Positions 45,912 to 62,843 of a stretch of 64,000 bases of DNA are shown here, piece after piece. A model generated the notes under the pieces. That model was not told where the DNA came from, searched no databases, and saw only the letters and a list, made by a program, of their open reading frames with translations. Numbering within the stretch: position 1 is the stretch's first letter; the number at the start of each line of letters is the position of its first letter. A program made the position numbers and the translations under genes. The stretch is taken from contig CAVVHS010000007.1 of the NCBI GenBank assembly GCA_963748215.1, positions 352,001 to 416,000 of the forward strand. The letters are read 5' to 3'. The stretch comes from an uncultured Gammaproteobacteria bacterium (GTDB taxonomy: Bacteria > Pseudomonadota > Gammaproteobacteria > UBA9214).

Positions 45912-45946
45912 GGGGTCGGTCGAGTTTCCATGCAATGCTCCTGTGT

Positions 45947-47744: not shown

Positions 47745-50170
47745 TCAGTCCGCCAGTGCCGGTTCGCGTTGGGTTTCTCCCTCGATGTCCAGCACGACCT
47801 GCGTCATCTTCATCACGCTGTCCGGGTTCAGCGAAATGGACTCGATGCCCTGATCGACCAGCCAGCGTGTGATTTCGGGAAAATCGGACGGGGCCTGGCC
47901 GCAGATGCCGATATACTTGCCGGATTCGCGGCAGGCGCGAATGGCCATTTCCATCAGCGCCAGCACCGCCGGGTTGCGTTCGTCGTAGCCGGTCAGGATG
48001 CCGGAGTCGCGATCCACGCCCAGGGTCAGCTGGGTGAGGTCGTTGGAGCCGATGGAGAAGCCGTCGCAGTGCTCGAGGAACTGCTTCGCGCGCACGGCAT
48101 TGGCGGGTATTTCGCACATCAGCTTGACCTTCAGGCCGTGTTCACCGCGGCGCAGCCCGTAGTTTGCCATCAGTCCCAGCACCAGCTGCACCTCTTCCAC
48201 GGTGCGCGCGAACGGGATCATGAGTTCGAGATTGTCCAGGCCCATCTCCTCGCGTACCTTCACCATCGCCGCGCATTCCAGTGCGAAGCAGTCCGAGAAA
48301 GACTCCGAGTGATAGCGCGAGGCGCCGCGGAAACCGATCATCGGGTTTTCCTCGACCGGTTCGAAGGCACGGCCACCGAGCAGGGCGGCATATTCATTGG
48401 ACTTGAAATCGCTCATGCGCACCGTCACCGGCTTTGGATAGAACGCCGCGGCAATGGTGCCGACACCCTCGGCAAGGCGGTCGATGTAGAAGTCGCGCGG
48501 GCTGGCATAGCCATGGATGCGCGGCGCGATTTCGTTACGGATGTCCTCCGGCAGGCTGTCGTACTCCAGCAGCGCGCGCGGGTGGATGCCGATGGTGTTG
48601 TTGATGATGAATTCGAGGCGCGCCAGTCCGACACCGGCGTTGGGCAGGGCGGAGAATTCCAGCGCCTGCACCGGGTTGCCGACGATCAGCATGACCTTGG
48701 TGCGCGGTGTCGCCAGCCCGGTCAGGTTAACCGACTCCTTGGTGAAGGGCAGTATGCCCTCGTAGACAAAACCGGTATCGCCCTCGACGCAGGACACCGT
48801 GACCTCCGTGCCGTCGTGTATTTCATGGGTTGCGTCACCGGCACCGACTACCGCGGGGATGCCGAGTTCGCGCGCCACGATGGCGGCATGGCAGACACGA
48901 CCACCGCGATTGGTGACAATGGCGCTGGCGATCTTCATCACCGGTTCCCAGTCCGGGTCGGTGATATCGGTCACCAGCACCTCGCCGGGCTGCAGGTCGT
49001 GCATGTGTGCGGCCTCGAGGATGATGCGCGCCTTGCCGGCGCCGATCTTGGCACCGACGGCCTTGCCCTGCGACAGCACCGGGCCGCGTTGCTGCAGGGT
49101 GAAGATGTCCTGGAAGGCGCCGGTGCGGATGGAATGCACCGTTTCCGGACGCGCCTGCACGATGAACAGCTCGCCGCTTTCGCCGTCCTTCGCCCACTCG
49201 ATGTCCATGGGCCGCGACTTGCCGGCCGATGCCGAGTAGTGTTTCTCGATGACTACGGCGTAGCGCGCCAGGGTGAGTATCTCGTCGTCGCTGATCGCGA
49301 ACTTGCGCGCGTTCCTCCTTTTTCACGGCGACGTTGCGCGTGGCCGCGGCGGTGACCGGGTCGCGCGTGTAGATCATCTTGATGGCCTTCTCGCCGAGGT
49401 GACGGCGGATGATGGGCCGGTGGCCGGATTCGAGCGTGGGCTTGAACACCAGGAACTCGTCCGGGTTGACCGCGCCCTGCACCACGTTCTCGCCCAGGCC
49501 ATAGGCCGCCGTGATCATGACCACGTCGCGGAAGCCGCTTTCGGTGTCGAGCGTGAACATCACGCCCGAGCTGGCCAGGTCGGAACGCACCATCTTCTGC
49601 ACGCCGATCGATAATGCGATGCTCATGTGATCGAAGCCCTTGTCCACGCGGTAGTGGATGGCGCGATCGGTGAATAATGAGGCCAGCACGCGCTTGCAGG
49701 TACGCAGCAGCTGCTCGATGCCGCGAATGTTCAGGTAGGTCTCCTGCTGGCCGGCGAACGAGGCGTCCGGCAGGTCCTCGGCGGTGGCGGAACTGCGTAC
49801 CGCTACGTCGGGCTCATTGCCGTACTCGATGGCCATGTCCTGGTAGGCGGCCTGGATTTCCTCGGCCAGTTGCGGCGGCAACTCGCCGTCGATCATCCAG
49901 CCGCGGATCTGCGCGCCGGTGACGGCCAGTGCGTCGACATCATCCATGTCCAGCGTTTCGAGTGCCTCGCGGATGCGGGCATCGAGCTTGTTGTGCGTCG
50001 AGGTAGTCGCGATAGGCCTGCGCGGTCGTGGCGAAACCATTCGGTACCTTGACGCCCTGGCCTGACAGCGTGCGATACATTTCACCGAGCGAGGCATTCT
50101 TGCCGCCGACCAGCGGTACGTCAGCGATGCCGAGTTCATTGAAACGTCGAATATAGGTCAAGGATTGCAT
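47745..50170 (-). CDS. ppsA: Phosphoenolpyruvate synthase; two +1 frameshifts (~49995, ~49310)
   Basis: [66 protein letters not shown] spread over three ORFs. Confidence 0.92.
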
Positions 50171-50266
50171 CAGAGGTGGACCTCGTTTGTTTTGTTAAGG
50201 GTATGGGTAGAGTGCATTGTGCCCACAATGCCCCTGCGTAATTGCCACATCATTCGACCTGTCGTA

Positions 50267-50280
50267 TTGACGAATGTCAA
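50267..50280. promoter_or_regulatory. FNR-type box 1 in the divergent ppsA/mbx promoter
   Basis: TTGAC-GAAT-GTCAA with perfectly inverted half-sites. Confidence 0.72.
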
Positions 50281-50366
50281 ATAAAGTGTGATTGTGCCCA
50301 GGCATGTTGACGAGCATGCCATGAAGCATATATCAGTCTTGCCCGGAACATCTGTCTGGGTGCAAA

Positions 50367-50408
50367 ATGATTTATGTCAAAACGCCAGTCACGGATTCGC
50401 GCTAGATT
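50367..50408 (+). promoter_or_regulatory. FNR-type box 2 with a -10 element facing the mbx operon
   Basis: ATGAT-TTAT-GTCAA (50367-50380); TAGATT at 50403-50408, same spacing as the 40306 promoter. Confidence 0.62.
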
Positions 50409-50577
50409 CCGCTGCTGTAAAACCAGCGTCTCAGAGACAGGCGTTGTCATATAAATGTAATAATTCGCGGGGGTTGCCAGTTTCGGTCAGTGACAGTGCA
50501 AGCGTCAGAATACCCTTGATCGACCCTGGTTTCACATATCATGCGCCTAGCAAGTTTTTACGTACTGATCTCCTGAT

Positions 50578-51105
50578 ATGAGCGGAAGCGGGACGTCGGT
50601 CATTAGCGGCACACGTGGACACATGGTGCTGGTCTTTCTGCTCGGCTGGCTGGCCTGGTTGCTGCTGGCCGGCACGCTGACTGTCGAGGAAGTCGTCGCC
50701 GGCGCGCTGGTGTCCCTGCTGGTCACGCTGCTGTCCGGCCGGCACCTGGCCGTCTATGCCGGGGTCCGCTTCACCCCCGATGCCATTCTCCACCTGTTTG
50801 CCTTTCTCGCCGTGTTCCTGCGTGCGCTGCTGCACGCGAACATCGACATGGCGCGCCGCGTGCTGTCGCCCGCGCTGCCGATCCGGCCAGCCGTGGTGGA
50901 AGTCGAAACGCAACTGCAGTCCGCGCTGGGCAAACTGTTGCTGACCAATGCCATAACGTTGACGCCCGGTACCCTCTCCATCGACGTCGAGGACAACCGT
51001 ATCAAGGTGCACTGGGTGGATTGCCCGCCAGGTCTGGACCTGCACGGCAAGACGGCCGCCATTGTCAGCGGTTTCGAACGCCACTTGCTCGGGTTCCTGG
51101 TATGA
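50578..51105 (+). CDS. Mrp/Mbx subunit A (MnhE-like)
   Basis: ANIDMARRVL.P, NAITLTPGTL. Confidence 0.9.
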   Translation: MSGSGTSVISGTRGHMVLVFLLGWLAWLLLAGTLTVEEVVAGALVSLLVTLLSGRHLAVYAGVRFTPDAILHLFAFLAVFLRALLHANIDMARRVLSPALPIRPAVVEVETQLQSALGKLLLTNAITLTPGTLSIDVEDNRIKVHWVDCPPGLDLHGKTAAIVSGFERHLLGFLV

Positions 51106-51368
51106 GCGTGTCCCTGTTACAGCTTGTCGCGCTGTGCCTGCTCGGTACCGGCCTGGTGCTGGGTACGATCCGCTTCGTGCTGGGACCGACCACGCCGGAC
51201 CGCATCGTCGCGGCAGACACCCTGTCGATCCTGATCACCGCGGGCCTGGTGTGGCTGGCGCACCTGCTCGACAGCGGCATCTATCTGTCCATCGCACTGG
51301 TGTTCGGGGCGCTGTCATTCGTCGGTACCGTGGCCCTGGCGCGTGCCATCGAGGGCAACCGCTCATGA
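51102..51368 (+). CDS. Mrp/Mbx subunit B (MnhF-like)
   Basis: RFVLGPTTPDRIVAAD, LSFVGTVALAR. Confidence 0.9.
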   Translation: MSVSLLQLVALCLLGTGLVLGTIRFVLGPTTPDRIVAADTLSILITAGLVWLAHLLDSGIYLSIALVFGALSFVGTVALARAIEGNRS

Positions 51369-51697
51369 CGCTGGCCGGCGACCTGTTTCTGTTGCTGGGT
51401 TCCGCGTTCGCCTGTCTCGGTGCGCTGGGCCTGATTCGCATGCCGGATGTCTACAACCGCCTGCAGGCGGGTACCAAATCGGTCACGCTGGGGACCATGG
51501 CCATCCTCATCGGCATCGGCCTGCACCACCCGCAGTGGTGGTCCAATCTGCTGATGATCGGTGTGCTGGTGCTGTTCACCAATCCGGTCGGCTCTGCCTC
51601 CATCGCGCGCGCCGCACTGATTGCCGGTATTCGTCCCTGGCAGGTACCGGAGGCGGCGCCGCAACAGCTGCCGGCCGGCGAGGGGAAGGACGACTGA
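51365..51697 (+). CDS. Mrp/Mbx subunit C (MnhG-like)
   Basis: GLIRMPDVYNRLQAGTK, FTNPVG. Confidence 0.9.
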   Translation: MTLAGDLFLLLGSAFACLGALGLIRMPDVYNRLQAGTKSVTLGTMAILIGIGLHHPQWWSNLLMIGVLVLFTNPVGSASIARAALIAGIRPWQVPEAAPQQLPAGEGKDD

Positions 51698-51990
51698 TGG
51701 CCGACTGGATCAACTGGGTGGCCCTGCTGGCGGTGCTGGTGATGCTGGCCGGCGCGGTAGCGGTGCTCCTGTTGAATAATTTCCTCGCGGCCGTGGCCGC
51801 GACCTCGGTGGTATCGCTGGGCGCTGCGGTGATTTTCGTGTTGCTGCGCGCGCCGGACGTGGCGCTGACCGAGGCCGCCGTGGGGGCCGGCCTGAGCAGC
51901 GTGATCATGGCGTTGTGCCTGCGACGGCTCGGCCTGTGGCACATCGCGCCGAATACGACCGGTGCGGATGACGCGGGAGGCAGCCGCTGA
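51697..51990 (+). CDS. Mrp/Mbx subunit D (DUF4040/MbhD-like)
   Basis: LRAPDVALTEAAVGAGL. Confidence 0.88.
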   Translation: MADWINWVALLAVLVMLAGAVAVLLLNNFLAAVAATSVVSLGAAVIFVLLRAPDVALTEAAVGAGLSSVIMALCLRRLGLWHIAPNTTGADDAGGSR

Positions 51991-52679
51991 TGCGCAACTA
52001 CATCTCCCTGCTGTTCGTGGCCGGCCTGGCATTCCTGCTGTTCGTGATTACCGGTCAGCTCGAGTTCGGCGCGGCGCCGATGCTGATTGGACAGGCCATC
52101 AACCAGGCGGCGCCGGAGCAGGTCGGTGCCGCCAACATCGTCACCTCCGTGGTGCTGGGCTACCGTGCACTCGACACCCTGGGCGAGCTGGCGATCCTGT
52201 TCACTGCGGCCACCGCCGGCGGCCTGATGCTCGGGCGTCCGCGCCCCGGCGCGGCACATGATCCGGAGGCGGGTTTCATCCTGCGTACCGCCGCCGACCT
52301 GCTGTTTCCGTTGCTGCTGGTGGTGGGTCTGTTCATCATCGTGCACGGCCACCTGACGCCGGGTGGCGGCTTCCAGGGTGGCGTGATCCTGGCCGCGGCC
52401 TTTTTCGTGCCCTTGCTGGCGCGGCCCGGTACGCACTTCGACCACGCGTCCTTTGCCGTCGTCGAGGGCCTGGCCGGTGCCACCTTCATCGTGATCGGCC
52501 TGCTCGGCCTGGTGTATGGCGGCGAGTTTCTCGCGCCGCTGCTGGGACAGGGCGAGATGGGCAGCCTGCTGTCGGCCGGTACGCTGCCGTTGCTTTATAT
52601 CGCCGTTGGCCTGAAGGTCGGCACCGAGCTGGCCGGGCTGATGGCACACATTGCCGCCTACGAGGCGGTGGATTCATGA
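51990..52679 (+). CDS. Mrp/Mbx MnhB-like subunit
   Basis: NIVTSVVLGYRALDTLGE, HGHLTPGGGFQGG. Confidence 0.9.
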   Translation: MRNYISLLFVAGLAFLLFVITGQLEFGAAPMLIGQAINQAAPEQVGAANIVTSVVLGYRALDTLGELAILFTAATAGGLMLGRPRPGAAHDPEAGFILRTAADLLFPLLLVVGLFIIVHGHLTPGGGFQGGVILAAAFFVPLLARPGTHFDHASFAVVEGLAGATFIVIGLLGLVYGGEFLAPLLGQGEMGSLLSAGTLPLLYIAVGLKVGTELAGLMAHIAAYEAVDS

Positions 52680-53134
52680 GCCCGCCGGACCTGGGGGCGA
52701 TCCTGTTCACCGGTGCCTTCGGCCTGGTGGTGATCGGCATCCTCGGCATTGTCACGTCCACGCACCTGGTGCGCATCGTACTGTCCATCGTGCTGCTGGA
52801 GACGGGCGCCAACCTGCTGCTGATGCTGTCGGGTTACCGGCCCGGCGCGGCGGCGCCGATCATTATCGACGGCGTGGTGCCGGCCGCCATGGTCGATCCG
52901 GTGCCGCAGGCCCTGGTGCTGACCGCGATCGTCATCGGTGTCGCGGTGCAGGCGTTCATGATGACGCTGGTACTGCGACTGCGCAGTGTTTACGGCACCC
53001 TGGATATTCGCGAGCTGCGTGGCCGCCTGGAGCGCGATCTCGCGCGGGAGGCCGGCATCGGTCTGCCGACCAGCGACGATGCCCCGGACGTGGCGGGTGT
53101 CGGTACGGCGCGTCCGCAGGGAGGTGACACCTGA
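52676..53134 (+). CDS. Mrp/Mbx subunit G (MnhC-like)
   Basis: DPVPQALVLTAIVIG, YGTLD. Confidence 0.9.
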   Translation: MSPPDLGAILFTGAFGLVVIGILGIVTSTHLVRIVLSIVLLETGANLLLMLSGYRPGAAAPIIIDGVVPAAMVDPVPQALVLTAIVIGVAVQAFMMTLVLRLRSVYGTLDIRELRGRLERDLAREAGIGLPTSDDAPDVAGVGTARPQGGDT

Positions 53135-54591
53135 TGTCGCCCGTGCTGATGTTCGTCCTGCCGTTGCTGGGTGCGTTCCTGTTGCCGATCGTGGCGCGTG
53201 CTTCGGCAATGGCTGGCCGCCTGTTCGGCCCGCTGGTGCTGGCGCTGAACTGTGTGATCGGCGTGCTGGCCTGGGGTACGGTGAGTGAACAGACCCAGGT
53301 CATTGCGCTGGGTGGCTTTCAGCCGCCGTTGGGTATCGCCTTCTATGTCGACCGGCTGGCGTTGCTGTTCGCCATCGCGGTCTCGCTCGGTGTGCTGCTG
53401 CTGTGGCCGGACGCCGGAGAGGATGAGGCCGCGCAGCGCGAGAACACGCTGACCCTGGTGCTGGCGGCAGCCGCGACCGGGCTGGCCTTGTCCGGCGACC
53501 TGTTCAATATCTACGTCTTTTACGAGCTCACGGCAGTGGCTTCCTACGGCCTGGCCGCGGCGCGCCGCAACGGCGCCGCCTATGCCGCCACGCTGCGCTA
53601 CGTGGTGATCAGCAGTTTCGGCGCGGCACTGATGCTGATGGGCATCGCGCTGGTGTACATGGCCACGGGCACGCTCAACCTCGCGCAGCTGGCGCAGCTT
53701 GCGCCCGGCGCGCTGGACGGTCCGCTCGGGCTGGCCGCGTTCGTGTTCATCCTGATCGGTGCCGGCGTCAAGGCCGAGCTGTTCCCGGTCAACACCTGGG
53801 TACCCGAGGTGTACGCGGCGGCCTCGAAGCGCGTCGCCGGCCTGCTGGCCGGTATCATTTCCAAGCTGGCATTGCTGATCATCGTGCGCCTGCTGGTGCT
53901 GGTTTTTCAGCAGCCCGAGGCGCTGCAGATCCTGTTGACGCTGGGCATCCTCGGCGTGATCACCGGCGAGCTGGCCGCCTGGTATGCGCGTGATCTGACA
54001 CGCATGCTGGCCTACTCGTCGATCGGCCAGCTTGGTGTGATGTTCATTGCCTTTTCCATTCCGGGTACGGCCGGCCTGTATGCCGGCCTGGCCGTGGCGC
54101 TGCATCATATGGTGGTCAAGCCGGCCCTGTTCCTGCTGGCGGAGCGCCAGGGCGGCGCGCTGGAACGCCTCGCCGGGTCGGCGCAGGCCTCGCCGGTGGC
54201 CGCCGGGCTGTTCATCCTGCTGGCGCTGTCACTGATCGGCATTCCGCCCTTGCCCGGTTTCTGGGCCAAATTCCTGGTGGTGACGGCGGCGCTGGCCCAG
54301 CCGGGCACGGCGTACCTGCTGAGCGTGGCGGTCATCCTGCTGGCCGTGGTGGTGGAGGCCAGCTACCTGTTCCGCGTGATCGTGCAGCTGTACCGGCGCG
54401 TGCCGCCGACCGAGGTCGGTGACGGGCACGATGGTGCGACGCTGACCGTCAGTGCAGCCCTGGGCCTGGCGCTGATCGCTGCCGTACTGTGGCTGGCACC
54501 ACTGGGCAACGGCCTGCAGGGCATCGCTGCGCAGGCCGCGGACCGGGCCGGCTACATCGAGGCGGTGCTGCCTGCCGGAGCCGGGTTATGA
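53134..54591 (+). CDS. Mrp/Mbx subunit H (MnhD/NuoN-like ion-translocating subunit)
   Basis: DLFNIYVFYEL, KAELFP..WVPEVY, RMLAYSSI, GIPPLPGFWAK. Confidence 0.9.
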   Translation: MSPVLMFVLPLLGAFLLPIVARASAMAGRLFGPLVLALNCVIGVLAWGTVSEQTQVIALGGFQPPLGIAFYVDRLALLFAIAVSLGVLLLWPDAGEDEAAQRENTLTLVLAAAATGLALSGDLFNIYVFYELTAVASYGLAAARRNGAAYAATLRYVVISSFGAALMLMGIALVYMATGTLNLAQLAQLAPGALDGPLGLAAFVFILIGAGVKAELFPVNTWVPEVYAAASKRVAGLLAGIISKLALLIIVRLLVLVFQQPEALQILLTLGILGVITGELAAWYARDLTRMLAYSSIGQLGVMFIAFSIPGTAGLYAGLAVALHHMVVKPALFLLAERQGGALERLAGSAQASPVAAGLFILLALSLIGIPPLPGFWAKFLVVTAALAQPGTAYLLSVAVILLAVVVEASYLFRVIVQLYRRVPPTEVGDGHDGATLTVSAALGLALIAAVLWLAPLGNGLQGIAAQAADRAGYIEAVLPAGAGL

Positions 54592-56450
54592 ACACGTTCG
54601 ACCAGTTGTTGCTGCTGGCTTTGGTCACCGTGCTGACGACGCTGCTCACCGGCGGCCTGCGCTGGGGTGGCTGGCTGGCAACACTGCTGTATGCGGGCCA
54701 GCTGGTATTGCTGTTCGGCATGGCGACGGTCGGCCAGGAAGGCGCATCGGTCAGTTCCGGACTGGCGATCGAGGTGCCGGGCTTTGTACTGCACTGGGAG
54801 ATGACGCCGCTGTCCTGGTTCTTCGCGCTGTTGACGGTGGGCGCCGGCCTGCTGTGCAGCGCCTATGCCGCGGGCGAGTGGGGGCAGGCTTACGGCGCGC
54901 AGCGCTCGTTGCGCCTGTTGAACGTGACGCTGGCGCTGAACGTCGCCAGCATGCTGTTGCTGGTCACCAGTGCCGACCTGTTGAGCCTGTTTATCGGCTG
55001 GGAGCTGATGAGCTGGGCCAGCCTGCTGATGATGATCCAGAACGGCCCCGCGTCGGTGCGCGCGGCGCTGCGTTACCTGCCGTATGCCATGGCCGGTGCG
55101 ATGGCGCTGCTCGGTGCCATCGCGCTGGTGTACGTGCAGGGCGGCACGCTTGAATTCGATGGCCTGCGCGCACTGCTGGCCGGCCTGGGCACGCTGCCGT
55201 TGTGGACGCTGCTGATGTTGCTGTTCGCCGGTTTCGCGGTGAAGATGGCCGCGGTGCCGTTCCACCTCTGGCAACCGCAGGCCTACAGCGAGGCACCCGG
55301 TGCGGGCGCGGCCTTCCTCGGCGCGATCTCATCGCGCATGGGCCTGTTCGCCATGGCGCTGGTGCTGGTCAAGCTGGTCGGTTTCGACTACCTGGCCGAT
55401 GCACAGGCCTGGGTCAGTCCGCAGGATGTCATGCTGCTGCTGTCTGCGGCCACCATCATCATCGGCGCCTACGTGGCGCTGCGCCAGGACGATGCGCGGC
55501 TGCTGCTGGCCTGGAGCGGTATCAGCCAGGGCGGCTACATGATGCTGGGGCTGTACAGCGGCGCACCGCTGGCGGTGGCCGGCGGCCTGAGTCATGTATT
55601 CAGCTATGCCACCTACGAGGCCGGCCTGTTCATGGTGGTGTTCGCCGTTGTCCACCGCACCGGCACCGCCGACATGAACCGGCTGGGCGGGCTGGTCACG
55701 CGCATGCCGCTGTCGTTCCTGGTGCTGCTGATGGGCATCATCGGGCTGGCCGGGCTGCCGCCGATCAACGGTTTCGTGTCGAAGTGGATGATCTACCGCG
55801 GCCTGCTCGACCAGGGCATGGTGCTCTATTTCCTGGTGTCGGTGATCGGCACCCTGGGCAGCGTGCTGTACTGCTACAAGCTGATCCACAATATCTTCCT
55901 CGGCCAGCTGCGGCTCGAGCACCACGCGGTGCGCGAGGCGCCGTGGAGCATGACCGTGCCCATGCTGGTGCTTGGCGCGCTGATGTTCGCCACCGGCTAC
56001 ATGCCGGGCCTCGTGCTCGACTGGGTAGCGCCGGCCATGGCCTACCTCGGCATTCAGCCGCCGGAATACACGCTCGGTGCCATCCTGACCGCGGGCGCCG
56101 ACCTCGACATGCTGTGGCTGGTGACCTTCATGCTGATTGGTTTCGGCATAGGCGCGGTGATTTTCTACTCGGCTGGCCGTGCCCAGCGCGTGCACCAGCT
56201 GAACAACTATGCCGGCGGCCATTTCCTGACGGCCGATACGCGTTACCAGTACAGCTACAATTTCTATCCGGCGCTTTACCGCCTGATCGGGCCGCTCTAT
56301 CGCAACAGCTTTCAGTGGCTGGAATCCGGCGTGCTGTCGCTGATGAATTTCGTGTCCGCCGGGGCGCAGGGCATTTACCGTTCGGTGCACCCGTCGCTGT
56401 ACCTGCTGGCCGTGGTGGTGCTGGTGAGCCTGTTCTGGGGGGCGACGTGA
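54588..56450 (+). CDS. Mrp/Mbx subunit H' (second antiporter-like subunit)
   Basis: FIGWELMS, KMAAVPFHLWQP, GLPPINGFVSKW. Confidence 0.88.
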   Translation: MNTFDQLLLLALVTVLTTLLTGGLRWGGWLATLLYAGQLVLLFGMATVGQEGASVSSGLAIEVPGFVLHWEMTPLSWFFALLTVGAGLLCSAYAAGEWGQAYGAQRSLRLLNVTLALNVASMLLLVTSADLLSLFIGWELMSWASLLMMIQNGPASVRAALRYLPYAMAGAMALLGAIALVYVQGGTLEFDGLRALLAGLGTLPLWTLLMLLFAGFAVKMAAVPFHLWQPQAYSEAPGAGAAFLGAISSRMGLFAMALVLVKLVGFDYLADAQAWVSPQDVMLLLSAATIIIGAYVALRQDDARLLLAWSGISQGGYMMLGLYSGAPLAVAGGLSHVFSYATYEAGLFMVVFAVVHRTGTADMNRLGGLVTRMPLSFLVLLMGIIGLAGLPPINGFVSKWMIYRGLLDQGMVLYFLVSVIGTLGSVLYCYKLIHNIFLGQLRLEHHAVREAPWSMTVPMLVLGALMFATGYMPGLVLDWVAPAMAYLGIQPPEYTLGAILTAGADLDMLWLVTFMLIGFGIGAVIFYSAGRAQRVHQLNNYAGGHFLTADTRYQYSYNFYPALYRLIGPLYRNSFQWLESGVLSLMNFVSAGAQGIYRSVHPSLYLLAVVVLVSLFWGAT

Positions 56451-57355
56451 TGGACTGGCAGACGGTGTTGTTCGATGTCGTGGTCATGCCGCTGGTGGCC
56501 TTTATCGTCGGGCTGCTGCTGGTGCTGATGATGCGCCGCACGCGCGCCCGGCTCGAGCGCCGCGTCGGGCCGCCGTTCTTCCAGCCGCTGTACGACATCC
56601 TCAAGCTGTATTCCAAGGATATCCAGGTCTCGCACGGTTTCATCCATGACCTGGGCATCATCATGGTGGTCGGTGGCTACATTACGGTGGAGATGTTCCT
56701 GCCGGTGCCGGGCATGGTCGGGCTGGCCGAGAAGGGCGACCTGATCGCGCTGGTGTACCTGATGATGGTGCCGTCGCTGGGCATGGCACTGGGCGTCGGC
56801 CAGTGCGCCAACCCGAACGGCTCGATCGGCATTTCGCGTGCGCTGACTTCCATGCTCGGCTACGACATTCCGTTCGTGCTGGTCGTGGTCGCGGCCGCGG
56901 CGATGTACGGCACCACCAGCCTGCCGGAGATCATCGCCATCCAGCAGCAGGGTGGAATCTCGACCTGGGGTATTGCGAGCATGCCGGTCATGGCGCTGGC
57001 CGGCTTAATCACCACTCACGTGATGCTGGCCAAGGAGCCGTTCGAGACCTACATCGCGCCGGCCGAGATCGCCACCGGGCCGATGGTCGAGATGGGCGGC
57101 AAGTTCATGGGCGGTTTGTTCGTCGTACAGACCTTTCAGGTCTATACTGCAGGTGTGCTGTTCACGACGCTGTTTCTGGGCGGCGGCGTCACCTGGTTCG
57201 ATTTTCTGCCAAAGGTGTTTGCCGTGCTGTTCCTGCCGTTCGCCATCACCATCCTGTATCCGCGTTACAAGGCCGGAGAAGGGTTACTCTGGGTGTGGAA
57301 ATGGCCGACCGGTATCGCGCTGCTGGGACTGGCGCTGATCTTTATGCAGAGGTGA
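56450..57355 (+). CDS. Mbx subunit M (NuoH-like)
   Basis: ARLERRVGPPFFQPLYDILKL, PFE...EIATGPMVE. Confidence 0.88.
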   Translation: MDWQTVLFDVVVMPLVAFIVGLLLVLMMRRTRARLERRVGPPFFQPLYDILKLYSKDIQVSHGFIHDLGIIMVVGGYITVEMFLPVPGMVGLAEKGDLIALVYLMMVPSLGMALGVGQCANPNGSIGISRALTSMLGYDIPFVLVVVAAAAMYGTTSLPEIIAIQQQGGISTWGIASMPVMALAGLITTHVMLAKEPFETYIAPAEIATGPMVEMGGKFMGGLFVVQTFQVYTAGVLFTTLFLGGGVTWFDFLPKVFAVLFLPFAITILYPRYKAGEGLLWVWKWPTGIALLGLALIFMQR

Positions 57356-57359
57356 GACC

Positions 57360-58091
57360 ATGAGCGACAAGCAACTCGAAATTCCGGTTACACAGGGCAG
57401 CCCTGCGCCCGGCGGCGGCAATCCCTATCGCGGCGTGTTTGACCGCCTGCAGGATTTCTGCCGCGCCCGCTCGCTGTTCATGCTGCATTACTGTACCGGC
57501 TGCGGGGCCATCGAGCTGCCACCGGCGATGACCTCGCGCTACGACATGGAGCGGCTCGGTATCCAGCCCATGGCCACGCCGCGCCAGGCGGACATCCTGC
57601 TGGTCACCGGCTATGTCGCCACCAAGACCCTGAAGCGCATCCTGCTGACCTACGAGCAGATGAGCGCGCCGCGCTATGTGATCGGCATCTGCTCCTGCAC
57701 CGTGAATGGCGGCATGTACTGGCAGAGCTACGCCACGGTGAAGAAACTTAACGACTACCTGCCGGTCGATATGTACATCGCCGGCTGCATGCCGCGCCCG
57801 GAGGCGGTCATCGTTGGCCTGCAGAAGCTGATGGAGAAGATCGATGCCGGCCGCGCGGAGTCCTGGAAGGACTACTACCGCAACTACGACTATTACCTGG
57901 GCAAGCAGCAGACGCTGTTCGGCGAACGCTGGCAGACGCCGACCGACATCATCGCCGAGGCGCGCCGCTACGACTTGTTCGGGCCGGACACGCTGGGATC
58001 ACACACCGCGCTGCTGGAGCAGTACCAGACGCCGCTGGAGATGCCGTCTACCCCGGTGTTCGGGCGCGAGCGCGAGAAAATCGAGCGGTAG
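57360..58091 (+). CDS. Mbx subunit J (NuoB-like FeS subunit)
   Basis: YCTGCGAIELPP, RYDMERLG, PRQAD, CSCTVNGG, GCMPRPE. Confidence 0.9.
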   Translation: MSDKQLEIPVTQGSPAPGGGNPYRGVFDRLQDFCRARSLFMLHYCTGCGAIELPPAMTSRYDMERLGIQPMATPRQADILLVTGYVATKTLKRILLTYEQMSAPRYVIGICSCTVNGGMYWQSYATVKKLNDYLPVDMYIAGCMPRPEAVIVGLQKLMEKIDAGRAESWKDYYRNYDYYLGKQQTLFGERWQTPTDIIAEARRYDLFGPDTLGSHTALLEQYQTPLEMPSTPVFGREREKIER

Positions 58092-58172
58092 ATCGCGCCA
58101 TAAGCACCGCCCGGATCTATGGTGCGCGTGGCGCACCCTACAAAAGGGAAATTAACCCCGCAGGCAAATTTC

Positions 58173-58712
58173 ATGGATAGCGGCAAGGAACTGGTCAACT
58201 GGCTGGACAAGGTGCTGGAGGAATTCCAGGGTGTGCAGGTGCGGCGCAAGAGCACCTCGCGCGTGCGCGTCGACGTGGATGCCGACGCGCTGCCGGCGCT
58301 GCTGGAGCTGCTGCAGGGGCGCGCCGGCTACGTGCACCTGTCCGCGCTGAGTTGCGTGGACTGGATCGACGACAACGAGTTCGAGCTGGTCTACCACGTG
58401 TGGTCCTACGAGACCCGCTCGCTGGTATCCGCGCACATCCGCATCCCGCGCGAGCCGGGGGCCTACCTCTCGGTCTACGACATCTACAAGCCGGCGGCCT
58501 TTTTCGAGCGCGACATCTTCGAAATGTTCGGCGTGTTCTTCGAGGGCAGTCCGCACATGGAGAAATTCATTCTCACCGAGTGGGACGGGCCGCCGCCGAT
58601 GCGCAAGGAATTCGATACCCGCCAGTACGTGCACGACACCTTCGACTGGCAGCAGTACAACCCGGAGTGGCTGCAGGAGATCCGCGCCAAGGGCGGGGGG
58701 ATCGTCGAATGA
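58173..58712 (+). CDS. Mbx subunit K (NuoC-like)
   Basis: SCVDW, FELVYH, FERDIFEMFGVFFEG, PPMRKEF; start may lie upstream at 58119. Confidence 0.88.
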   Translation: MDSGKELVNWLDKVLEEFQGVQVRRKSTSRVRVDVDADALPALLELLQGRAGYVHLSALSCVDWIDDNEFELVYHVWSYETRSLVSAHIRIPREPGAYLSVYDIYKPAAFFERDIFEMFGVFFEGSPHMEKFILTEWDGPPPMRKEFDTRQYVHDTFDWQQYNPEWLQEIRAKGGGIVE

Positions 58713-59851
58713 GGCCCGAGAACTACCAGGCGGTCAGTCATCCGCCCAGCCACGAATTCGAGCTGAATATCGGCCCCAACCACCCCGGCATCGAGGGCAA
58801 CTACGCGCTCAAGCTGAAGCTGGAGGGCGACATCGTGGTGGCGGCAAAGGCCGACGCCGGCTACCTGCACCGCGGCTTCGAGAAGCTCATGGAAGGCCGG
58901 TTGTGGATGCAGAACATTGCGCTGGTGCCGCGCATCTGCGTGCCGGACCCGGCGCACATGGAGATCTGCTACGCGCTGGGCGTGGAAATGCTCGGCGGGC
59001 TGGAGGTGCCGGAGCGCGCGCAGTGGCTGCGTGTCATGCAGCTGGAGCTGTCGCGCCTCACCGCGCACCTGTTCTATTTCGGCGGCGCCGCCGCCACCAT
59101 GGGCATGTACAGCAACATGTTCTGGGGCGTGTCCGACCGCGACCTGATACTCGACCTGTTCGAGGAATTCACCGGCGGGCGCGTGTACAGCATGTACAAC
59201 GTGCCCGGCGGCGTGCGCCGCGACCTGCCCGAGGGCTTCATCGGTCGCCTGGTGTCGCTGCTGGATTACCTCGATTCGCGCCTGGACGACTACGACAACC
59301 TGTTCTTCACCAACTACGTGATGGTGCACCGCACGCGCGGCACCGGTGCCATGAACCAGCAGCAGGCGCTGGAATGGGGCGTGACCGGACCCAACCTGCG
59401 TTCCACCGGGCTGGCCTTCGACGTACGCCGTGACGATCCCTACCTGGTGTACGACCAGCTCGAGTTCGACATCCCGGTCGAGGAGGCCGGCGACGCGCTG
59501 TCGCGTATCCTGGTGCGGCGCAACGAGTTGATACAGAGCATCCGCATCCTGCGCCAGGTGGCCGAGCGCCTGCCGTCGATCGGCGGGCCGGTGCGCTGCC
59601 CGCTGCCCAATCCGCTGGCCTGGAACGTGCCGGCCGGCGAGAGCTACGCGCGCGTGGAATCCTCCAAGGGCGAGCTGGCCTACTACACCGTCTCCAATGG
59701 CAGCGACAAGCCGTGGCGCGTGCACATCCGCGGGCCGTCACAGATGCATGGCGTGCAGGTGCTGGAGAACCTCTGCATCGGCGCGCGCATCGAGGACGTC
59801 GCCCAGATCATTTTCACTCTCGACGCCTGTCCGCCGGAGGTCGACCGCTGA
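58709..59851 (+). CDS. Mbx subunit L (NuoD/[NiFe] large-subunit-like, no Ni ligands)
   Basis: IGPNHPG, GYLHRGFEK, RICVPDP and DACPPEVDR: one Cys in each of the two hydrogenase CxxC positions. Confidence 0.9.
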   Translation: MRPENYQAVSHPPSHEFELNIGPNHPGIEGNYALKLKLEGDIVVAAKADAGYLHRGFEKLMEGRLWMQNIALVPRICVPDPAHMEICYALGVEMLGGLEVPERAQWLRVMQLELSRLTAHLFYFGGAAATMGMYSNMFWGVSDRDLILDLFEEFTGGRVYSMYNVPGGVRRDLPEGFIGRLVSLLDYLDSRLDDYDNLFFTNYVMVHRTRGTGAMNQQQALEWGVTGPNLRSTGLAFDVRRDDPYLVYDQLEFDIPVEEAGDALSRILVRRNELIQSIRILRQVAERLPSIGGPVRCPLPNPLAWNVPAGESYARVESSKGELAYYTVSNGSDKPWRVHIRGPSQMHGVQVLENLCIGARIEDVAQIIFTLDACPPEVDR

Positions 59852-61686
59852 TGGCCGATATCGATTACAAGAGCCGCGGCAGCATCCTCAACCCGCTGCG
59901 CAACCTGTCGTTCCTGACGCGCAAGCCGGTCACGCTGCCGCTCGAACCGCGCGAGGCCTCGGCCAATTACCGCGGCTTTCACCTCAACGACTGGGAAAAG
60001 TGCATCGGCTGCAGCACCTGCCAGAAGATCTGCGACAACGAAGCGATTACCATGATCCACATCCCGGACCTGCCGGAGGACCCGATCAAGGGGGTGCGGG
60101 CGCAGCGACCGGCCATCGATTACGGCCGCTGCTGCTGGTGCGGCCTGTGTGTGGACATCTGTCCGACGGCGTCGCTGTCGCTGTCGCGCGAGTACGTGCA
60201 TACCTGCGAGGAACACGAGCTGGACAGCTATTTCATCCTGCCCGACCCGCAGGGCATGCACAAGAAGTTCTACGGCCACGGCTGGCGCAAGACCGCGGAC
60301 GAGGATCTAATTGACCTCGAGCGCCAGGCCATGCCCGAGCAGCCGGCGGAACAGCGCCTGCAGTCGTTCGGCGAATTCGTGCAGGGTTACGACATGCAGC
60401 AGGCCATCGTCGAGGCATCGCGATGCGTGCAGTGCGGCATGTGCCACGATTCCTGCCCGGCACACATGAACGCACCGGAATATATCCGCGCCATCTGGGA
60501 ACAGGACCTGGAGGAGGCGGTGCGCCAGATCTACCGCACCAACCCGTTCGCGCACGTGTGCGGGCGCGTTTGCACGCGGCGCTGCGAGGCGGCCTGTTCC
60601 ATCGGCGTACGGGGCGAGCCGGTGGCTATCCGCTGGCTGAAGCGATATGCCATGGACAGCGTCGGCCATGAACGCATACGCGAGATTGCAGGCGAGGGGC
60701 GTGGCGACTATCTCAGCGGTGGCAAGGTTGCGGTGATCGGTGCCGGACCCGCCGGCCTGACCGCGGCCTTCGACCTGGCACGGCACGGCCACAGCGTCAC
60801 GGTGTACGAGGCGCAGCCGGCGGCGGGCGGCATGATGCGCTACGGCATCCCGGCCTACCGGTTGCCGTACGCGCGCATCGACGACGACGTCGACGTGATT
60901 CGCGCCATGGGCGTCGACATCCAGTACAATACGCGCATTGGCCGCGATATTTCCATGTCGCAGCTGCAGGCGGACTACGATGGCGTACTGCTGGCCATCG
61001 GCCTGTGGAACGGTCGCTCCACGCGCGTGCCCGGTTCGGACCACGCACAGGTGCGCAGTGCGGTCGAGCTGCTGCGCGAGATCACGCTCAACGAGTCCTT
61101 GACGGTGCCGCAGTCGGCTGTGGTCATCGGCGGTGGCAATACCGCCATGGATATCGCGCGCAGCATGGCACGCCTGCAGCTCGTGCAATACGGACAGGCC
61201 AATATCACGCTTACCGCACTGGAAGACGCCGATCACTTGCTGGCCGACCCGGTGGAGATCCGCGAGACCGACGAGGAAGGCATTACCATCCTGCCGGGGC
61301 GCGGTCCGCGCCGCTGCATGATGGACGAGCAGGGCCGGCTGGTCGGGCTGGAGACCGTGCGCGTGGTGTCGCTGCATGACGAACAGGGCCGCTTCGCGCC
61401 GCAATACGACGACGGCGATGTGCAGATGCACGTCGCGGATATGGTGATCGAGGCCATCGGCCAGCAGGCGGACACCTCGCTGCTGAGCGTGGAACTTACC
61501 GAGGCGCTGGAATGGGAGCGCGGCCGGATCAAGACCGATGCCGGCGGTCGCAGCTCGGTCGGCTGGCTGTGGGCGGCCGGCGACGTGGTTACGGGGCCGG
61601 ATGTTATCCACGCCGTGGCCGACGGGCACCGCGTCGCAGCCAGCATCGAGGCCTGCCTGGGACAGGAGAGATATGCCAATGGGTAG
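59851..61686 (+). CDS. Mbx subunit N (NuoI-like 2x[4Fe-4S]) fused to a GltD/SudA/NfnB-like FAD-NAD(P) oxidoreductase
   Basis: CIGCSTCQKIC and CCWCGLCVDICP; then EASRCVQC..C...CPAH, CGRVCTRRCE..C, GAGPAG, GGGNTAMD, AAGDVVTG. Confidence 0.9.
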   Translation: MADIDYKSRGSILNPLRNLSFLTRKPVTLPLEPREASANYRGFHLNDWEKCIGCSTCQKICDNEAITMIHIPDLPEDPIKGVRAQRPAIDYGRCCWCGLCVDICPTASLSLSREYVHTCEEHELDSYFILPDPQGMHKKFYGHGWRKTADEDLIDLERQAMPEQPAEQRLQSFGEFVQGYDMQQAIVEASRCVQCGMCHDSCPAHMNAPEYIRAIWEQDLEEAVRQIYRTNPFAHVCGRVCTRRCEAACSIGVRGEPVAIRWLKRYAMDSVGHERIREIAGEGRGDYLSGGKVAVIGAGPAGLTAAFDLARHGHSVTVYEAQPAAGGMMRYGIPAYRLPYARIDDDVDVIRAMGVDIQYNTRIGRDISMSQLQADYDGVLLAIGLWNGRSTRVPGSDHAQVRSAVELLREITLNESLTVPQSAVVIGGGNTAMDIARSMARLQLVQYGQANITLTALEDADHLLADPVEIRETDEEGITILPGRGPRRCMMDEQGRLVGLETVRVVSLHDEQGRFAPQYDDGDVQMHVADMVIEAIGQQADTSLLSVELTEALEWERGRIKTDAGGRSSVGWLWAAGDVVTGPDVIHAVADGHRVAASIEACLGQERYANG

Positions 61687-62206
61687 TGATACAGATACAC
61701 GCAGCCGGGAGGGCGCCTTGCATGGCAAGGACCTGCTGGCGTCGAAAAAGTCGCTGCAGGACATCCTGCTCGTGGCAACGGCCTTCGAGAAGACGGCGCG
61801 CGATTTCTACACGGCGTTGATTCCGCGCGTCAGCAAGCAGATCCGCTACCTGGTGGAGGAGCTGGCGGAAGAGGAGCAGCGTCACTACGACCTGTTCACT
61901 GAGCTGGCGAAATCACCGGACATCAACGAGCTTGTCCACGCGCAGGTTACTGTGCCCGTCAACGACCACCATTTTTCCGACTACGTGCACATGCCGGAAA
62001 TCGATGATGCGCCGGATGACCAGGCAATCCTGCAATATGCGCTCGCACGCGAGCATGCTGCGATGGAGCAGTATCGCGACCTCGCCAATAACACCGAATC
62101 AGGCCCGATCCACGACCTGTTCGAGTTCCTGGCCATCGAGGAGACCAAGCACAAGCGCGAACTGGAGAAGATCTACTACGAGACGGTGCACAGCGGGGGC
62201 GTCTGA
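61673..62206 (+). CDS. Ferritin-like (rubrerythrin-type di-iron) protein
   Basis: FEKTARDFY, LAEEEQRH, EHAAMEQY, LAIEETKH; overlaps the end of the upstream gene. Confidence 0.85.
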   Translation: MPMGSDTDTRSREGALHGKDLLASKKSLQDILLVATAFEKTARDFYTALIPRVSKQIRYLVEELAEEEQRHYDLFTELAKSPDINELVHAQVTVPVNDHHFSDYVHMPEIDDAPDDQAILQYALAREHAAMEQYRDLANNTESGPIHDLFEFLAIEETKHKRELEKIYYETVHSGGV

Positions 62207-62255
62207 GCCGGACCTGCAAACGCCATCCAGCGGGTTATCCGTTTTAAGCGGTTTA

Positions 62256-62463
62256 AATGGCCACGGAATCCACGGCAGAACACGGAAAACACGTAGGATG
62301 CACTCCGTGCACCATTGGGTGAGACGTGAGACGTGAACAGCAGAATGGCCACGGAATCAACGGCAGAACACGGAAAACACGTAGGATGCACTCCGTGCAC
62401 CATTGGGTGAGACGTGAGACGTGAACAGCAGAATGGCCACGGAATCAACGGCAGAACACGGAA
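62256..62463 (+). repeat. Tandem direct repeat, 88-bp unit x ~2.4
   Basis: AATGGCCACGGAATC.ACGGCAGAACACGGAA starts at 62256, 62344 and 62432; the unit contains GTAGGATGCACTCCGTGCACCA and GTGAGACGTGAGACGTGA. Confidence 0.9.
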
Positions 62464-62497
62464 TGACGTCAAGAACCTCTACGAGTCTATACCTCGC

Positions 62498-62580
62498 CAT
62501 TGCGAGCGGAGCGAAGCAATCTTTCGATTTCATGATCAGTCGGCTGGAGATCGCTTCGTCACTGCATTCCTCGCAATGAC
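62498..62580. repeat. REP/RPE-like palindromic element
   Basis: CATTGCGAGCGGAGCGAAGCAATCT ... AGATCGCTTCGTCACTGCATTCCTCGCAATG imperfect inverted repeat. Confidence 0.75.
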
Positions 62581-62607
62581 GGGATGATCAGGGTTACCTT
62601 GAATAAA

Positions 62608-62773: not shown

Positions 62774-62843
62774 AATCCAGCTTTACAGAATTTGCGGACA
62801 GGCTGTATGGTGTGACCTGCATAGGTAACAACAGGGGACAATA

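Follow-up and report, generated by a model that had tools for sequence, protein, structure and literature searches.

An operon of the MBS/Mbx family with a flavoprotein-fused N subunit and a predicted NADH donor in a gammaproteobacterial genome

The window analyzed here is a 64,000-nucleotide stretch of DNA from an uncultured gammaproteobacterium (GenBank assembly GCA_963748215.1, contig CAVVHS010000007.1), and its positions 50578 to 62206 hold an operon of 14 genes whose products are best read, from their sequences, as a single membrane complex that belongs to the MBS/Mbx family and is related to complex I. This family, to which the membrane-bound sulfane reductase (MBS) of Pyrococcus furiosus belongs, connects archaeal sulfur respiration with complex I and is very widespread in bacteria. 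The window operon encodes a variant inside the family and not its type form: the MbsN that stands alone in MBS and takes electrons from ferredoxin is here fused to a flavoprotein, and we predict that the donor is NADH rather than ferredoxin. By analogy with the archaeal enzyme, we propose that the complex would act as a reversible ion pump that couples NADH to sulfane sulfur, a reading to which we give an even chance. If it is true, this coupling would account for the survival of sulfur-storing bacteria and animal symbionts on their sulfur reserves during anoxia, and it would add an energy-conserving step to models of the sulfur cycle.

The Operon and Its Family

Thirteen plus-strand open reading frames between positions 50578 and 61686 are mostly coupled, overlapping by 1 to 5 nt except that J follows a gap of 4 nt and K one of 27 nt, and each can be assigned to a Pfam family: MNHE, MrpF_PhaF, PhaG_MnhG, MbhD (DUF4040), MnhB/MbhE, and Oxidored_q2 for genes 1 to 6 and two Proton_antipo_M, NADHdh, Oxidored_q6, Complex1_30kDa, Complex1_49kDa, and Fer4 for genes 7 to 13 (Table 1). 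An earlier note on this DNA, made from the sequence alone, had described these 13 coupled genes in this order, and the reading frames, junctions, and Pfam matches bear it out. Two of its details do not survive: the last of the 13 genes is not a plain NuoI but a 611-aa fusion with a flavin adenine dinucleotide (FAD) flavoprotein, and the operon does not end there, since a 14th, ferritin/rubrerythrin-like gene follows at 61679 to 62206. By sequence, the Mrp-type ion-translocating arm is complete, with seven small or antiporter-like subunits plus H', and it is accompanied by the anchor M and a peripheral arm J-K-L-N nearest to that of P. furiosus MBS. The Mrp-type module and M, J, K, L, and N thus stand in a single operon and in the order that we take to be that of the P. 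furiosus MBS genes; two archaeal loci (L036 and L038) have the gene order of the window as well. The 13-part layout and a long H' subunit are common to MBS and the window, and the extra ferritin-like gene is a difference between them.

All six of the subunits compared with sequences in the PDB (L, J, N, H, H', and M) have P. furiosus MBS (6U8Y) as their best match. L scores 388.3 bits against 6u8y_L in a single stretch, versus 269.2 against Nqo4 of Thermus and 123 against MbhL; J scores 219.9 bits against 6u8y_J, versus 117 against NDH-K and 104 against MbhJ; and M scores 177.7 bits against 6u8y_M, versus 61.7 against the runner-up, MbhM. For the N-terminal domain of N the figures are 88.8 bits (6u8y_N) and 52 (the best non-MBS match), and for the two antiporter-like subunits, whose best scores are given in Table 1, the runners-up are Mrp D at 153.8 bits (H) and MbhH at 131.9 bits (H', whose match to MBS spans residues 59 to 615).

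The phylogeny of L points the same way. Trees were built from 150 representatives, found in a search of 1.84 billion cluster representatives, and from 80 titled genome loci, the best relatives kept from 600 pattern-matched stretches scored in a scan of a species-genome collection. A FastTree tree of 146 rows, two quick IQ-TREE trees of 82 rows, and a careful IQ-TREE tree of 82 rows (LG+C20 with posterior mean site frequencies, PMSF) all agree. The P. furiosus sequence is itself not a row; its place is taken by the L protein of a metagenome-assembled genome (MAG) titled Thermococci (L086), which is usable as a stand-in for Thermococcales MbsL because it scores 758 bits against 6u8y_L. In the careful tree, window L lies inside a 49-row clade (support 99/92) that includes this stand-in; the rows with all four NiFe cysteines (CCCC) form a separate clade (100/100), as do the NuoD-like rows together with a second two-Cys group (99/96). 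Forcing the window clade together with the NuoD-like rows, a grouping that was named after inspection of the tree, was rejected by the approximately unbiased (AU) test (delta lnL 219.7, p-AU 6e-6). The earlier note had proposed such a phylogeny as a check on its assignment to the Mbx/MBS type, as neither complex I nor a hydrogenase, and the assignment stands.

Its label "Thermococcales-order," in contrast, overstates the link. Within the 49-row clade the window falls among 11 proteobacterial rows that form a clade of their own (100/100), with Spirochaetota as the sister group (100/99), and the Thermococci stand-in has no firm position (49/85). L is 75 to 77% identical to proteins of Thiobacillaceae and tubeworm symbionts and ~62% identical to that of a spirochaete, versus 49.6% to the Thermococci stand-in. 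The complex is MBS-like by its sequence, and the operon is not a Thermococcales import. Nor is Ehr, which had been set against Mbx, a real alternative, since PMC6349859, where it deals with Mbx, lists it among the Ehr complexes and treats it as a kind of Ehr; the window agrees with the definition of that group (relatives of group 4 hydrogenases with incomplete NiFe ligands and Mrp-like subunits), and the name is an umbrella term and not a rival. A further claim, that codon usage is host-like, holds only roughly: the GC content of the operon is 0.655, versus 0.605 for the genome, and GC at third codon positions is 0.82 to 0.91 in the genes read in frame, versus 0.73 to 0.86 in seven neighboring genes.

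The expectation that annotation pipelines would mislabel the operon was well founded. NCBIfam cut-offs yield "NADH-quinone oxidoreductase subunit D/B" and "antiporter subunit G," public records call the L proteins "NADH-quinone oxidoreductase subunit D," and the operon is thereby broken into "Na+/H+ antiporter," "NADH-quinone oxidoreductase," and "oxidoreductase" genes.

Table 1. Genes of the operon, with positions in the window
Gene	Product	Length (aa)	Position	Strand	Basis or remark
1	MnhE-like membrane subunit	175	50578..51105	+	Pfam PF01899 MNHE, E 2.2e-32; ATGA overlap with gene 2
2	MrpF/PhaF-like	88	51102..51368	+	Pfam PF04066, E 7.8e-16; tblastn relatives in related loci
3	MnhG-like	110	51365..51697	+	Pfam PF03334, E 2.5e-24; TIGR01300 87.2 bits (cut-off 63.1)
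4	MbhD/DUF4040	97	51697..51990	+	Pfam PF13244 MbhD, E 5.6e-19
5	MbhE plus MnhB-like	229	51990..52679	+	Pfam PF04039, E 2.2e-22, and PF20501; NF009217 163 bits
6	MnhC/NuoK-like	152	52676..53134	+	Pfam PF00420, E 1.1e-21
7	H, antiporter-like pump subunit	485	53134..54591	+	PDB best match 6u8y_H, 199.4 bits
8	H', antiporter-like pump subunit with long C-terminal part	620	54588..56450	+	PDB best match 6u8y_X, 173.9 bits
9	M, NuoH/MbsM-like membrane anchor	302	56447..57355	+	Pfam PF00146; PDB best match 6u8y_M
10	J, NuoB/MbsJ-like, predicted holder of the proximal [4Fe-4S] cluster	243	57360..58091	+	PDB best match 6u8y_J
11	K, NuoC/MbsK-like	197 (counted from the first ATG; 58170 is an alternative, later start)	58119..58712	+	Pfam PF00329, E 2.4e-26; ATGA overlap with L
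12	L, NuoD/MbsL-like large subunit, two-Cys type	380	58709..59851	+	PDB best match 6u8y_L
13	N, MbsN-like domain fused to GltD/NfnB-like flavoprotein	611	59851..61686	+	Pfam Fer4, Fer4_20, Pyr_redox_2
14	Ferritin/rubrerythrin-like, without rubredoxin domain	175	61679..62206	+	Pfam PF02915 Rubrerythrin, E 1.9e-13; overlaps N by 8 nt

Residues of the Catalytic Subunits

L holds the motif PRICVPDP (Cys77) and a terminal LDACPPEVDR (Cys374), and the four positions that carry NiFe ligands in hydrogenases read C, D, C, E, with D80 and E377 at the two others. Both motifs, with only two of the four NiFe cysteines, had been recognized in the earlier note, and the mapping onto MBS that it suggested places Cys77 and Cys374 on C85 and C385 of MbsL in the alignment to 6u8y_L. 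The pair had also been taken as a signature that sets sulfane reductase apart from hydrogenase and complex I, and this use of it fails: the C85A/C385A double mutant of MbsL stays active according to the MBS study (PMC7684303), and cysteines occupy the same two positions in the separate two-Cys group next to NuoD in the L trees. Because the mutant is active, we regard the two cysteines as a vestige of the family and not as a functional discriminator. Cysteines at these positions are described for Fpo and for the Nuo of Nautiliales as well (PMC4758237), and whole MBS-like clades, with the signatures NEVE and CEYE, lack the pair. One of these clades (NEVE/NETE; L009, L011, L012, L037, L053, L057, and others) has no cysteine at any NiFe position, and its MAGs, titled Thermotogota, Planctomycetota, Sumerlaeota, and others, retain both the fused N and CTGCG in J.

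Could the complex nonetheless be a group 4 [NiFe] hydrogenase, akin to membrane-bound hydrogenase (MBH), that evolves H2? Its kinship with MBH, expressed in the MbhL and MbhJ scores given above, speaks for this idea. Against it stand the presence of only two of the four NiFe cysteines, the clade of their own (100/100) that the NiFe rows form, and a profile search in which HypD (PF01924) had no match anywhere in the 95%-complete genome, a result that extends to the whole genome the earlier remark that no hydrogenase maturation genes lie nearby. The idea is already contradicted, and we give it next to no chance.

J aligns with MbsJ without a gap over 168 residues, and its four cysteines (C45-x-x-C48, C113, and C143) fall on C25, C28, C93, and C123 of MbsJ; this CTGCG loop of identical length and the further cysteines of J, like the two retained cysteines of L, are shared with P. 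furiosus MBS. The MBS study places catalysis at the proximal cluster in MbsJ, where the shortness of the CxxC loop limits the cluster to three Cys ligands (PMC7684303). In clades of Bacteroidota, Ignavibacteriota, Campylobacterota, and related groups (L008, L010, L055, L060, L072, and others), Gly takes the place of the first Cys of the CxxC (AYGTGCG), which leaves three cysteines for the proximal cluster; the occurrence of Gly at this nonligating position in several sister clades fits a three-Cys cluster as a trait of the family.

The same residues bear on whether the complex might be an alternative NADH:quinone oxidoreductase, that is, an enzyme like complex I that takes up NADH through another module. 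The window operon and complex I or MBH have homologous NuoH/B/C/D/I modules and antiporter-like subunits in common, matches to the NuoD and NuoB models of NCBIfam exceed the cut-offs, the complex has an input module of the NADH type, and the canonical nuoCD of this assembly, part of a separate nuo locus on contig C6, lies in three frames (C6:1020290-1022025). The window operon differs in that it has no NuoE/F/G NADH module, that its L has two of four NiFe cysteines and lies outside the NuoD clade, and that it lacks the complex I quinone-ligand features. The positions of H38 and Y87 of Nqo4, which with the tandem cysteines are given a role at the quinone site of complex I (PMC4758237, PMC7684303), are E and V in window L, and J has the CxxC (CTGC) in place of the tandem CC of complex I. 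As for nuoCD, its breaks look like assembly indels and not like gene loss or pseudogenes, because dsrA and a pps/ppdK-like gene are split too. A quinone-reducing enzyme is in our estimation distinctly improbable. In this assembly with its apparent indel errors, the 11.6-kb operon is intact.

The N Fusion and the Predicted Electron Donor

N joins two modules. Residues ~7 to 131 make up a NuoI/MbsN-like domain for two [4Fe-4S] clusters, with two CxxCxxCxxxC motifs and a match to 6u8y_N, and residues ~157 to 606 carry Fer4_20 and Pyr_redox_2, an iron-sulfur flavoprotein of the GltD/NfnB/SudA type (235.8 bits against the NfnI large subunit, 5jca_L). The cysteine clusters stand at residues 51/54/57/61, 94 to 104, 192 to 202, and 237 to 249, and NF010590 matches at 803.8 bits over profile positions 10 to 609 of 611, which is below its cut-off of 946. 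The C-terminal 450 residues share with the NfnB/DsrL/GltD family (5JCA_L, 4YLF_B; PMC7596348) a two-cluster ferredoxin domain, the FAD motif GxGxxG, and the NAD(P) motif GGGN; they differ in that the YRR of NADP-binding members is A-L-E in window N, at the place where YRR-bearing relatives have YRR in the alignment. Among the 80 loci, YRR is found in 24, and an acidic motif is found in 37 and in the window; GGGN and E458 do not vary among 17 N sequences from proteobacteria.

According to the DsrL study, NfnB grips the phosphate of NADP by means of Y310-R311-R312, and the DsrL types with YRR (DsrL-2) prefer NADP(H), while those without it prefer NAD(H) (PMC7596348). Thus, since A-L-E replaces the NADP-marking YRR and N carries its own FAD/NAD(H) flavoprotein, we predict NADH as the donor. 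The fusion to a 460-residue FAD/NAD(H) flavoprotein sets the window apart from P. furiosus MBS, and it shifts the predicted donor from the ferredoxin of MBS to NAD(H). Because the operon holds no gene for an NfnA/SudB-type partner, we would not expect bifurcation. A comparable joining of modules is found in the MBX-related operons of Desulfurococcaceae, in which a GltD/SudA-type NADPH module is associated with an MBX-type complex and for which NADPH oxidation with protons or sulfur as the acceptor was proposed (PMC3035292); there, sudA is a separate gene and the composition of the operon is different, whereas in the window the module is fused to N and a preference for NADH is predicted.

The flavoprotein could instead be the site at which NAD(P)+ is reduced, in an ion-translocating ferredoxin:NAD(P)+ oxidoreductase. 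MBX used to be understood in this way, and the same function was put forward in 2015 for gltD-bearing, mbx-like operons of Thermotoga and proteobacteria (PMC4758237). It could draw on the alpha gene of a 2-oxoacid:ferredoxin oxidoreductase 3.3 kb upstream in the window, but the other loci do not keep that gene next to the operon. Later work identified the MBX of P. furiosus as a sulfane reductase (PMC7684303), the ferredoxin-facing end of N is taken up by the fused domain, and electrons going from ferredoxin to NAD+ inside N would presumably bypass the J/L pocket, the site of coupling between redox chemistry and pumping in machines of the complex I type. We judge this function to be quite improbable.

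The Ferritin-Like Protein

Of the 80 loci, 18 have a ferritin-like gene after N, and their titles are without exception those of Pseudomonadota or of symbionts from the Gammaproteobacteria. Wherever a proteobacterial locus of the set extends past N, the gene is there. In nine ferritin-like sequences, E37, E65/E66, H69, E125, E154/E155, and H158 are invariant, a pattern that is, by sequence, that of a diiron site. The fold model of the protein is helical; a Foldseek search with it gave no match at E of ≤0.001, and the top weak rows were DPS-like proteins, thioferritin, and rubrerythrin.

Two observations connect this protein with N. The first comes from three N proteins of the sister clade, Spirochaetota, which are 749 to 770 aa long (L016:11742-14051, L019:4539-6827, and L033) and end in a tail of ~170 residues; when profiles are compared, this tail is homologous to the ferritin-like protein (hhalign, probability 90%, E 1.6e-6, 131 columns). 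The homology is supported by the profile comparison alone: BLASTP of the ferritin-like protein against these N proteins is weak (E 0.05 and 1.4), Pfam recognizes no rubrerythrin domain in the tails, and several of the ligand positions are not kept in them. The second is a model of the complex of N and the ferritin-like protein, which reached an ipSAE of 0.73 (runs of 0.73, 0.72, and 0.77), versus 0.00 for the best of three controls; in the benchmark, the mark used was attained by 116 of 157 solved complexes and by 2 of 215 mismatched pairs. The runs share at least 85% of their contacts, with a partner pLDDT of at least 74, and the contacts on N involve residues 388 to 394, 427 to 432, 457, 486 to 488, 515 to 519, 535 to 538, and 550 to 558, the NAD-binding part. 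A solved complex of this type is not known to us. Based on the model, the ferritin-like protein is probably a subunit that docks on the NAD-binding part of N, where we speculate that it would shield the flavin and clusters of N from O2 or H2O2 in facultatively aerobic hosts.

Distribution and Earlier Descriptions

Among the 600 pattern-matched stretches listed, at least 579 are relatives. The best 80 loci bear titles from ~20 phyla, a few archaea among them; Pseudomonadota account for 19 (Thiodiazotropha, Sedimenticola, Thiomargarita, Thiobacillaceae, Hydrogenophilales, and others), Bacteroidota for 15, and Spirochaetota for 6, and Campylobacterota, Thermotogota, Planctomycetota, and others are also present. 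The title of L025 is that of a Sedimenticola thiotaurini MAG, and the genus Sedimenticola has isolates. In tblastn searches with the window proteins, 41 loci have 13 of 13 parts, and 39 of these are collinear by best match. The NuoI-like and GltD-like parts of N lie in one frame in 64 of the 80 loci, and the fused form is therefore the usual bacterial one. An unfused N is found in 10 loci (Thermococci, Thermoplasmatota, Synergistota, one of Clostridiaceae, and three of Campylobacterota, along with two cut at contig ends), and N was not seen in 6, of which four are cut at contig ends and two are true NuoD loci. At 75 to 93% identity there are more than 120 protein clusters, mostly from sulfur oxidizers and from symbionts of tubeworms or clams.

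Several loci depart from the common plan. In three MAGs of Sulfurovum and Nitratifractor (L055, L058, and L073), the unfused N is directly followed by an MnhE-like gene, and in a Thermotogae MAG (L009) the J-K-L-N block lies ahead of the Mrp genes. One locus titled Candidatus Bathyarchaeota (L032, a MAG) has H', M, J, K, and L that are 57 to 75% identical to those of the window, a level also seen in proteobacterial loci; its contig is probably misbinned.

This kind of operon is already described from genomes, with the function of the bacterial members inferred. In 2015, Degli Esposti (PMC4758237) reported mbx-like operons in Thermotoga and proteobacteria that have a gltD-related flavoprotein at the position of NuoI and a NuoD with vestigial cysteines and that often end in rubrerythrin. 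The pha/mrp genes, the nuoH/B/C/D homologues, the gltD-related protein, and the terminal rubrerythrin of that account are all present in the window. It differs from ours in two respects: there, NuoI is said to be "substituted," whereas the window keeps a NuoI-like domain in fused form, and a ferredoxin:NAD(P)+ function was assumed, which we attribute to the fact that the paper predates MBS biochemistry. In 2024, a "putative Mrp-Mbx complex" was described in Candidatus Endoriftia persephone, the symbiont of Riftia, where it is co-expressed with the reductive tricarboxylic acid (rTCA) cycle and hydrogenases, as are the genes for sulfur-globule proteins, and where the authors tie it to S0 reduction, with the direction given as unknown (PMC11636981). 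That host, too, is a gammaproteobacterial sulfur-oxidizing symbiont, and the L proteins of tubeworm symbionts are 75 to 77% identical to window L; the flavoprotein fusion goes unmentioned in the description of the complex in PMC11636981. In Endoriftia, the genes of V-type ATPase subunit I are expressed together with the complex; this subunit was not found in the window genome, so this partner is not transferable to the window. In full-text literature searches, "Mrp-Mbx" was found only in PMC11636981, and Mbx together with a named genus of sulfur oxidizers likewise only in PMC11636981 among the matches listed. What is added here is the link with dsrA, the A-L-E motif, the ferritin-like protein fused to N in Spirochaetota, and its predicted docking.

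The earlier note had thought it remarkable that a gammaproteobacterium should have such an operon. Given the publications of 2015 and 2024, and given that 16 of 400 sampled genomes of the class share the variant, it is not.

The Link with Sulfur Oxidation

That count comes from an even sample of 400 genomes of the class, scored for L and with the window's own included (G039 and G308 count in the denominators only), in which 16 genomes have a full-length L at ≥70% identity. A further 7 matches at 44 to 50% belong to another MBS-like type, and 14 at 34 to 40% are NuoD. All 16 carriers have a dsrA match: 13 are over the cut-off, and 3, among them the window's own genome, are split or at contig ends. 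Six of the 7 genomes with the second MBS-like type also have a dsrA match. The variant is characteristic of dsr sulfur oxidizers, and the host of the window is a mesophilic, dsr-type sulfur oxidizer, unlike P. furiosus. The dsrA of this genome is split at C6:353160-354375, with four TGA codons inside. Presence of the operon varies within the genus: one genome of the same genus has an L at 89% identity, and another (G367, 98% complete) has no L match. One genome (G215) has two types of L, the variant of the window at 70% identity and, at 49%, the second MBS-like one.

A Proposed Mechanism and Its Direction

In total, we posit a mechanism in which electrons would pass from NADH to FAD, through the two clusters of the flavoprotein domain and the two MbsN-like clusters, and on to the proximal cluster in J. 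As in MBS, one iron of this cluster would lack a Cys ligand, and that iron would reduce the S-S bond of sulfane sulfur, the likely source of which is polysulfide or persulfide from stored sulfur that dsr-type oxidizers bring into the cytoplasm. Reduction of the S-S bond would then drive translocation of H+ or Na+ via H, H', and the Mrp module. The pump residues named for MbsH and MbsH' (PMC7684303) are in keeping with such a role, as 7 of the 10 are identical in the window: E138, K250, and K393 of MbsH are kept in H, and E128, K217, H336, and K399 of MbsH' are kept in H'. Two others stay charged (E219 of MbsH is K, and K248 of MbsH' is R), and one, H330 of MbsH, is lost.

How much energy would such a complex have at its disposal? 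The two couples lie ~50 mV apart, and transfer from NADH to polysulfide is estimated to yield ~10 kJ per 2 e-. With so small a driving force, the complex would work near equilibrium and may be reversible. For comparison, MBS with ferredoxin has 42 kJ and MBH 12 kJ per 2 e- at its disposal (PMC8165549).

We tentatively extend the proposal and see in the complex the enzyme, as yet unassigned, of an "endogenous sulfur respiration" in sulfur-storing dsr oxidizers, in which NADH from storage carbon would, under anoxia, be oxidized with stored sulfur and the energy conserved by pumping, with the reaction able to run in reverse, and to yield NADH from sulfide, when the membrane is energized. In this extension, which we think possible but doubtful, the complex would have 14 subunits, and the ferritin-like diiron subunit on the NADH domain would let an O2-sensitive enzyme with a three-Cys cluster survive in facultative aerobes. 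Sulfur-storing bacteria reduce stored sulfur under anoxia, and the forward direction would fit this behavior. It would also fit the grouping of the complex with rTCA, hydrogenase, and sulfur-globule genes reported for the Riftia symbiont (PMC11636981).

Several points weigh against a sulfane-reducing pump. The residue that is H330 in MbsH is V in window H, and the residue that is K248 in MbsH' is R in H'. Only about 10 kJ would be expected, yet two pump modules are kept. The acceptor is drawn solely from likeness to one archaeal enzyme, and the fused operon also turns up in numerous MAGs of fermenting anaerobes (Bacteroidales, Planctomycetota, and Thermotogae) that are not known to metabolize sulfur, so that the acceptor across the family need not be sulfur. 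The carriers of the L variant are related to one another and not independent, which makes the co-occurrence with dsrA an association and not a test; moreover, dsrA is common in the sampled class (TIGR02064 over the cut-off in 119 of 401 genomes, 30%). The Endoriftia complex (PMC11636981) is likened to the window operon by its description. No family of flanking genes recurs in at least 3 of 15 proteobacterial loci and the window (mostly ~2.3 kb of upstream flank), so the cassette seems self-contained and its context is of no help. In slight favor of expression, four sediment RNA libraries yielded short contigs that are 92 to 99% alike over 19 to 25 of 30 bins of positions 50000 to 62900, some of them running across the E-G, M-J, K-L, and N-ferritin-like junctions. 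Since such contigs may stem from DNA carried over into the libraries, they speak only weakly for transcription in relatives, and the parts of the operon without them are uninformative.

Given that the couples are so close, might the ion gradient set the direction and the complex run mainly in reverse? Ion-motive force from aerobic or nitrate respiration would then lift electrons from sulfide, polysulfide, or persulfide to NAD+, and autotrophs would gain NADH without a costly reverse run of complex I from quinol. The strict co-occurrence with genomes of oxidative dsr type (16 of 16) and the need of these autotrophic hosts for reductant agree with this physiology, as does the reported bias toward NAD+ reduction of AvDsrL-1A, a related flavoprotein of a sulfur oxidizer (PMC7596348). 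Against this, formation of S-S bonds at an Fe-S cluster is not a known reaction, and the assays of MBS were in the reducing direction only (PMC7684303); the complex of the Riftia symbiont is co-expressed with rTCA and hydrogenase genes and not with those of Sox, rDsr, or the Calvin-Benson-Bassham cycle (PMC11636981); and the operon is present in many nonautotrophic anaerobes. We hold a chiefly reverse physiology to be unlikely.

A different acceptor at the J/L pocket is also worth considering. Were it an organic disulfide or persulfide carrier, thiosulfate, or tetrathionate, or peroxide or oxygen by way of the ferritin-like subunit, the complex would be a redox-balancing NADH oxidase. Such an acceptor would suit the spread of the operon over phyla of differing metabolism and an L signature that varies (CDCE, CECE, CEYE, and NEVE) while J is conserved; the operon also encodes the diiron-type protein with its invariant ligand-type residues and predicted docking on N, and a quenching of radicals by rubrerythrin was proposed by Degli Esposti (PMC4758237). 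However, the pocket motif of J is the same as that of MBS, and the ferritin-like gene is confined to loci of Pseudomonadota, apart from the fused tail of Spirochaetota, which is without several of the ligand positions; a protein so confined would be accessory and not part of the core chemistry. We therefore rate another acceptor as a minor prospect and retain sulfane sulfur as the preferred one.

Genes and Signals around the Operon

Upstream of the operon lie genes like those for pyruvate phosphate dikinase (PPDK) or phosphoenolpyruvate (PEP) synthase, 2-oxoacid:ferredoxin oxidoreductase alpha (POR alpha), a GltD-like protein, and glycogen phosphorylase. A link with fermentation or the rTCA cycle was considered from this neighborhood and dropped, as 0 of 8 neighbor proteins are found beside the operon in other loci. 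The PEP-synthase/PPDK-like gene (47748 to 50139, minus strand) is split in overlapping frames, with PPDK_N at 48838 to 50139 and PEP-utilizers at 47748 to 49208. The GltD-like protein has 759 aa (Fer4_20 and Pyr_redox_2) and adjoins the POR alpha gene (POR_N and PFOR_II) at 43258 to 47233 on the minus strand; it is a second flavoprotein of the NfnB/GltD type within 6 kb, and the pairing is not conserved beside the operon elsewhere.

Rfam gave no match at E up to 1 between positions 50100 and 50620, terminator-like sites were no more frequent than in shuffles, and no sigma-70-like site was found upstream of the operon; the whole 12.9 kb that was scanned has one such site, versus 2.6 expected. 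This lone site, at 62782 to 62811, lies just upstream of a 6-phosphogluconate-dehydrogenase-like gene (NAD_binding_2 and the start of 6PGD) at 62844 to 63857 on the plus strand, ~640 bp after the operon.

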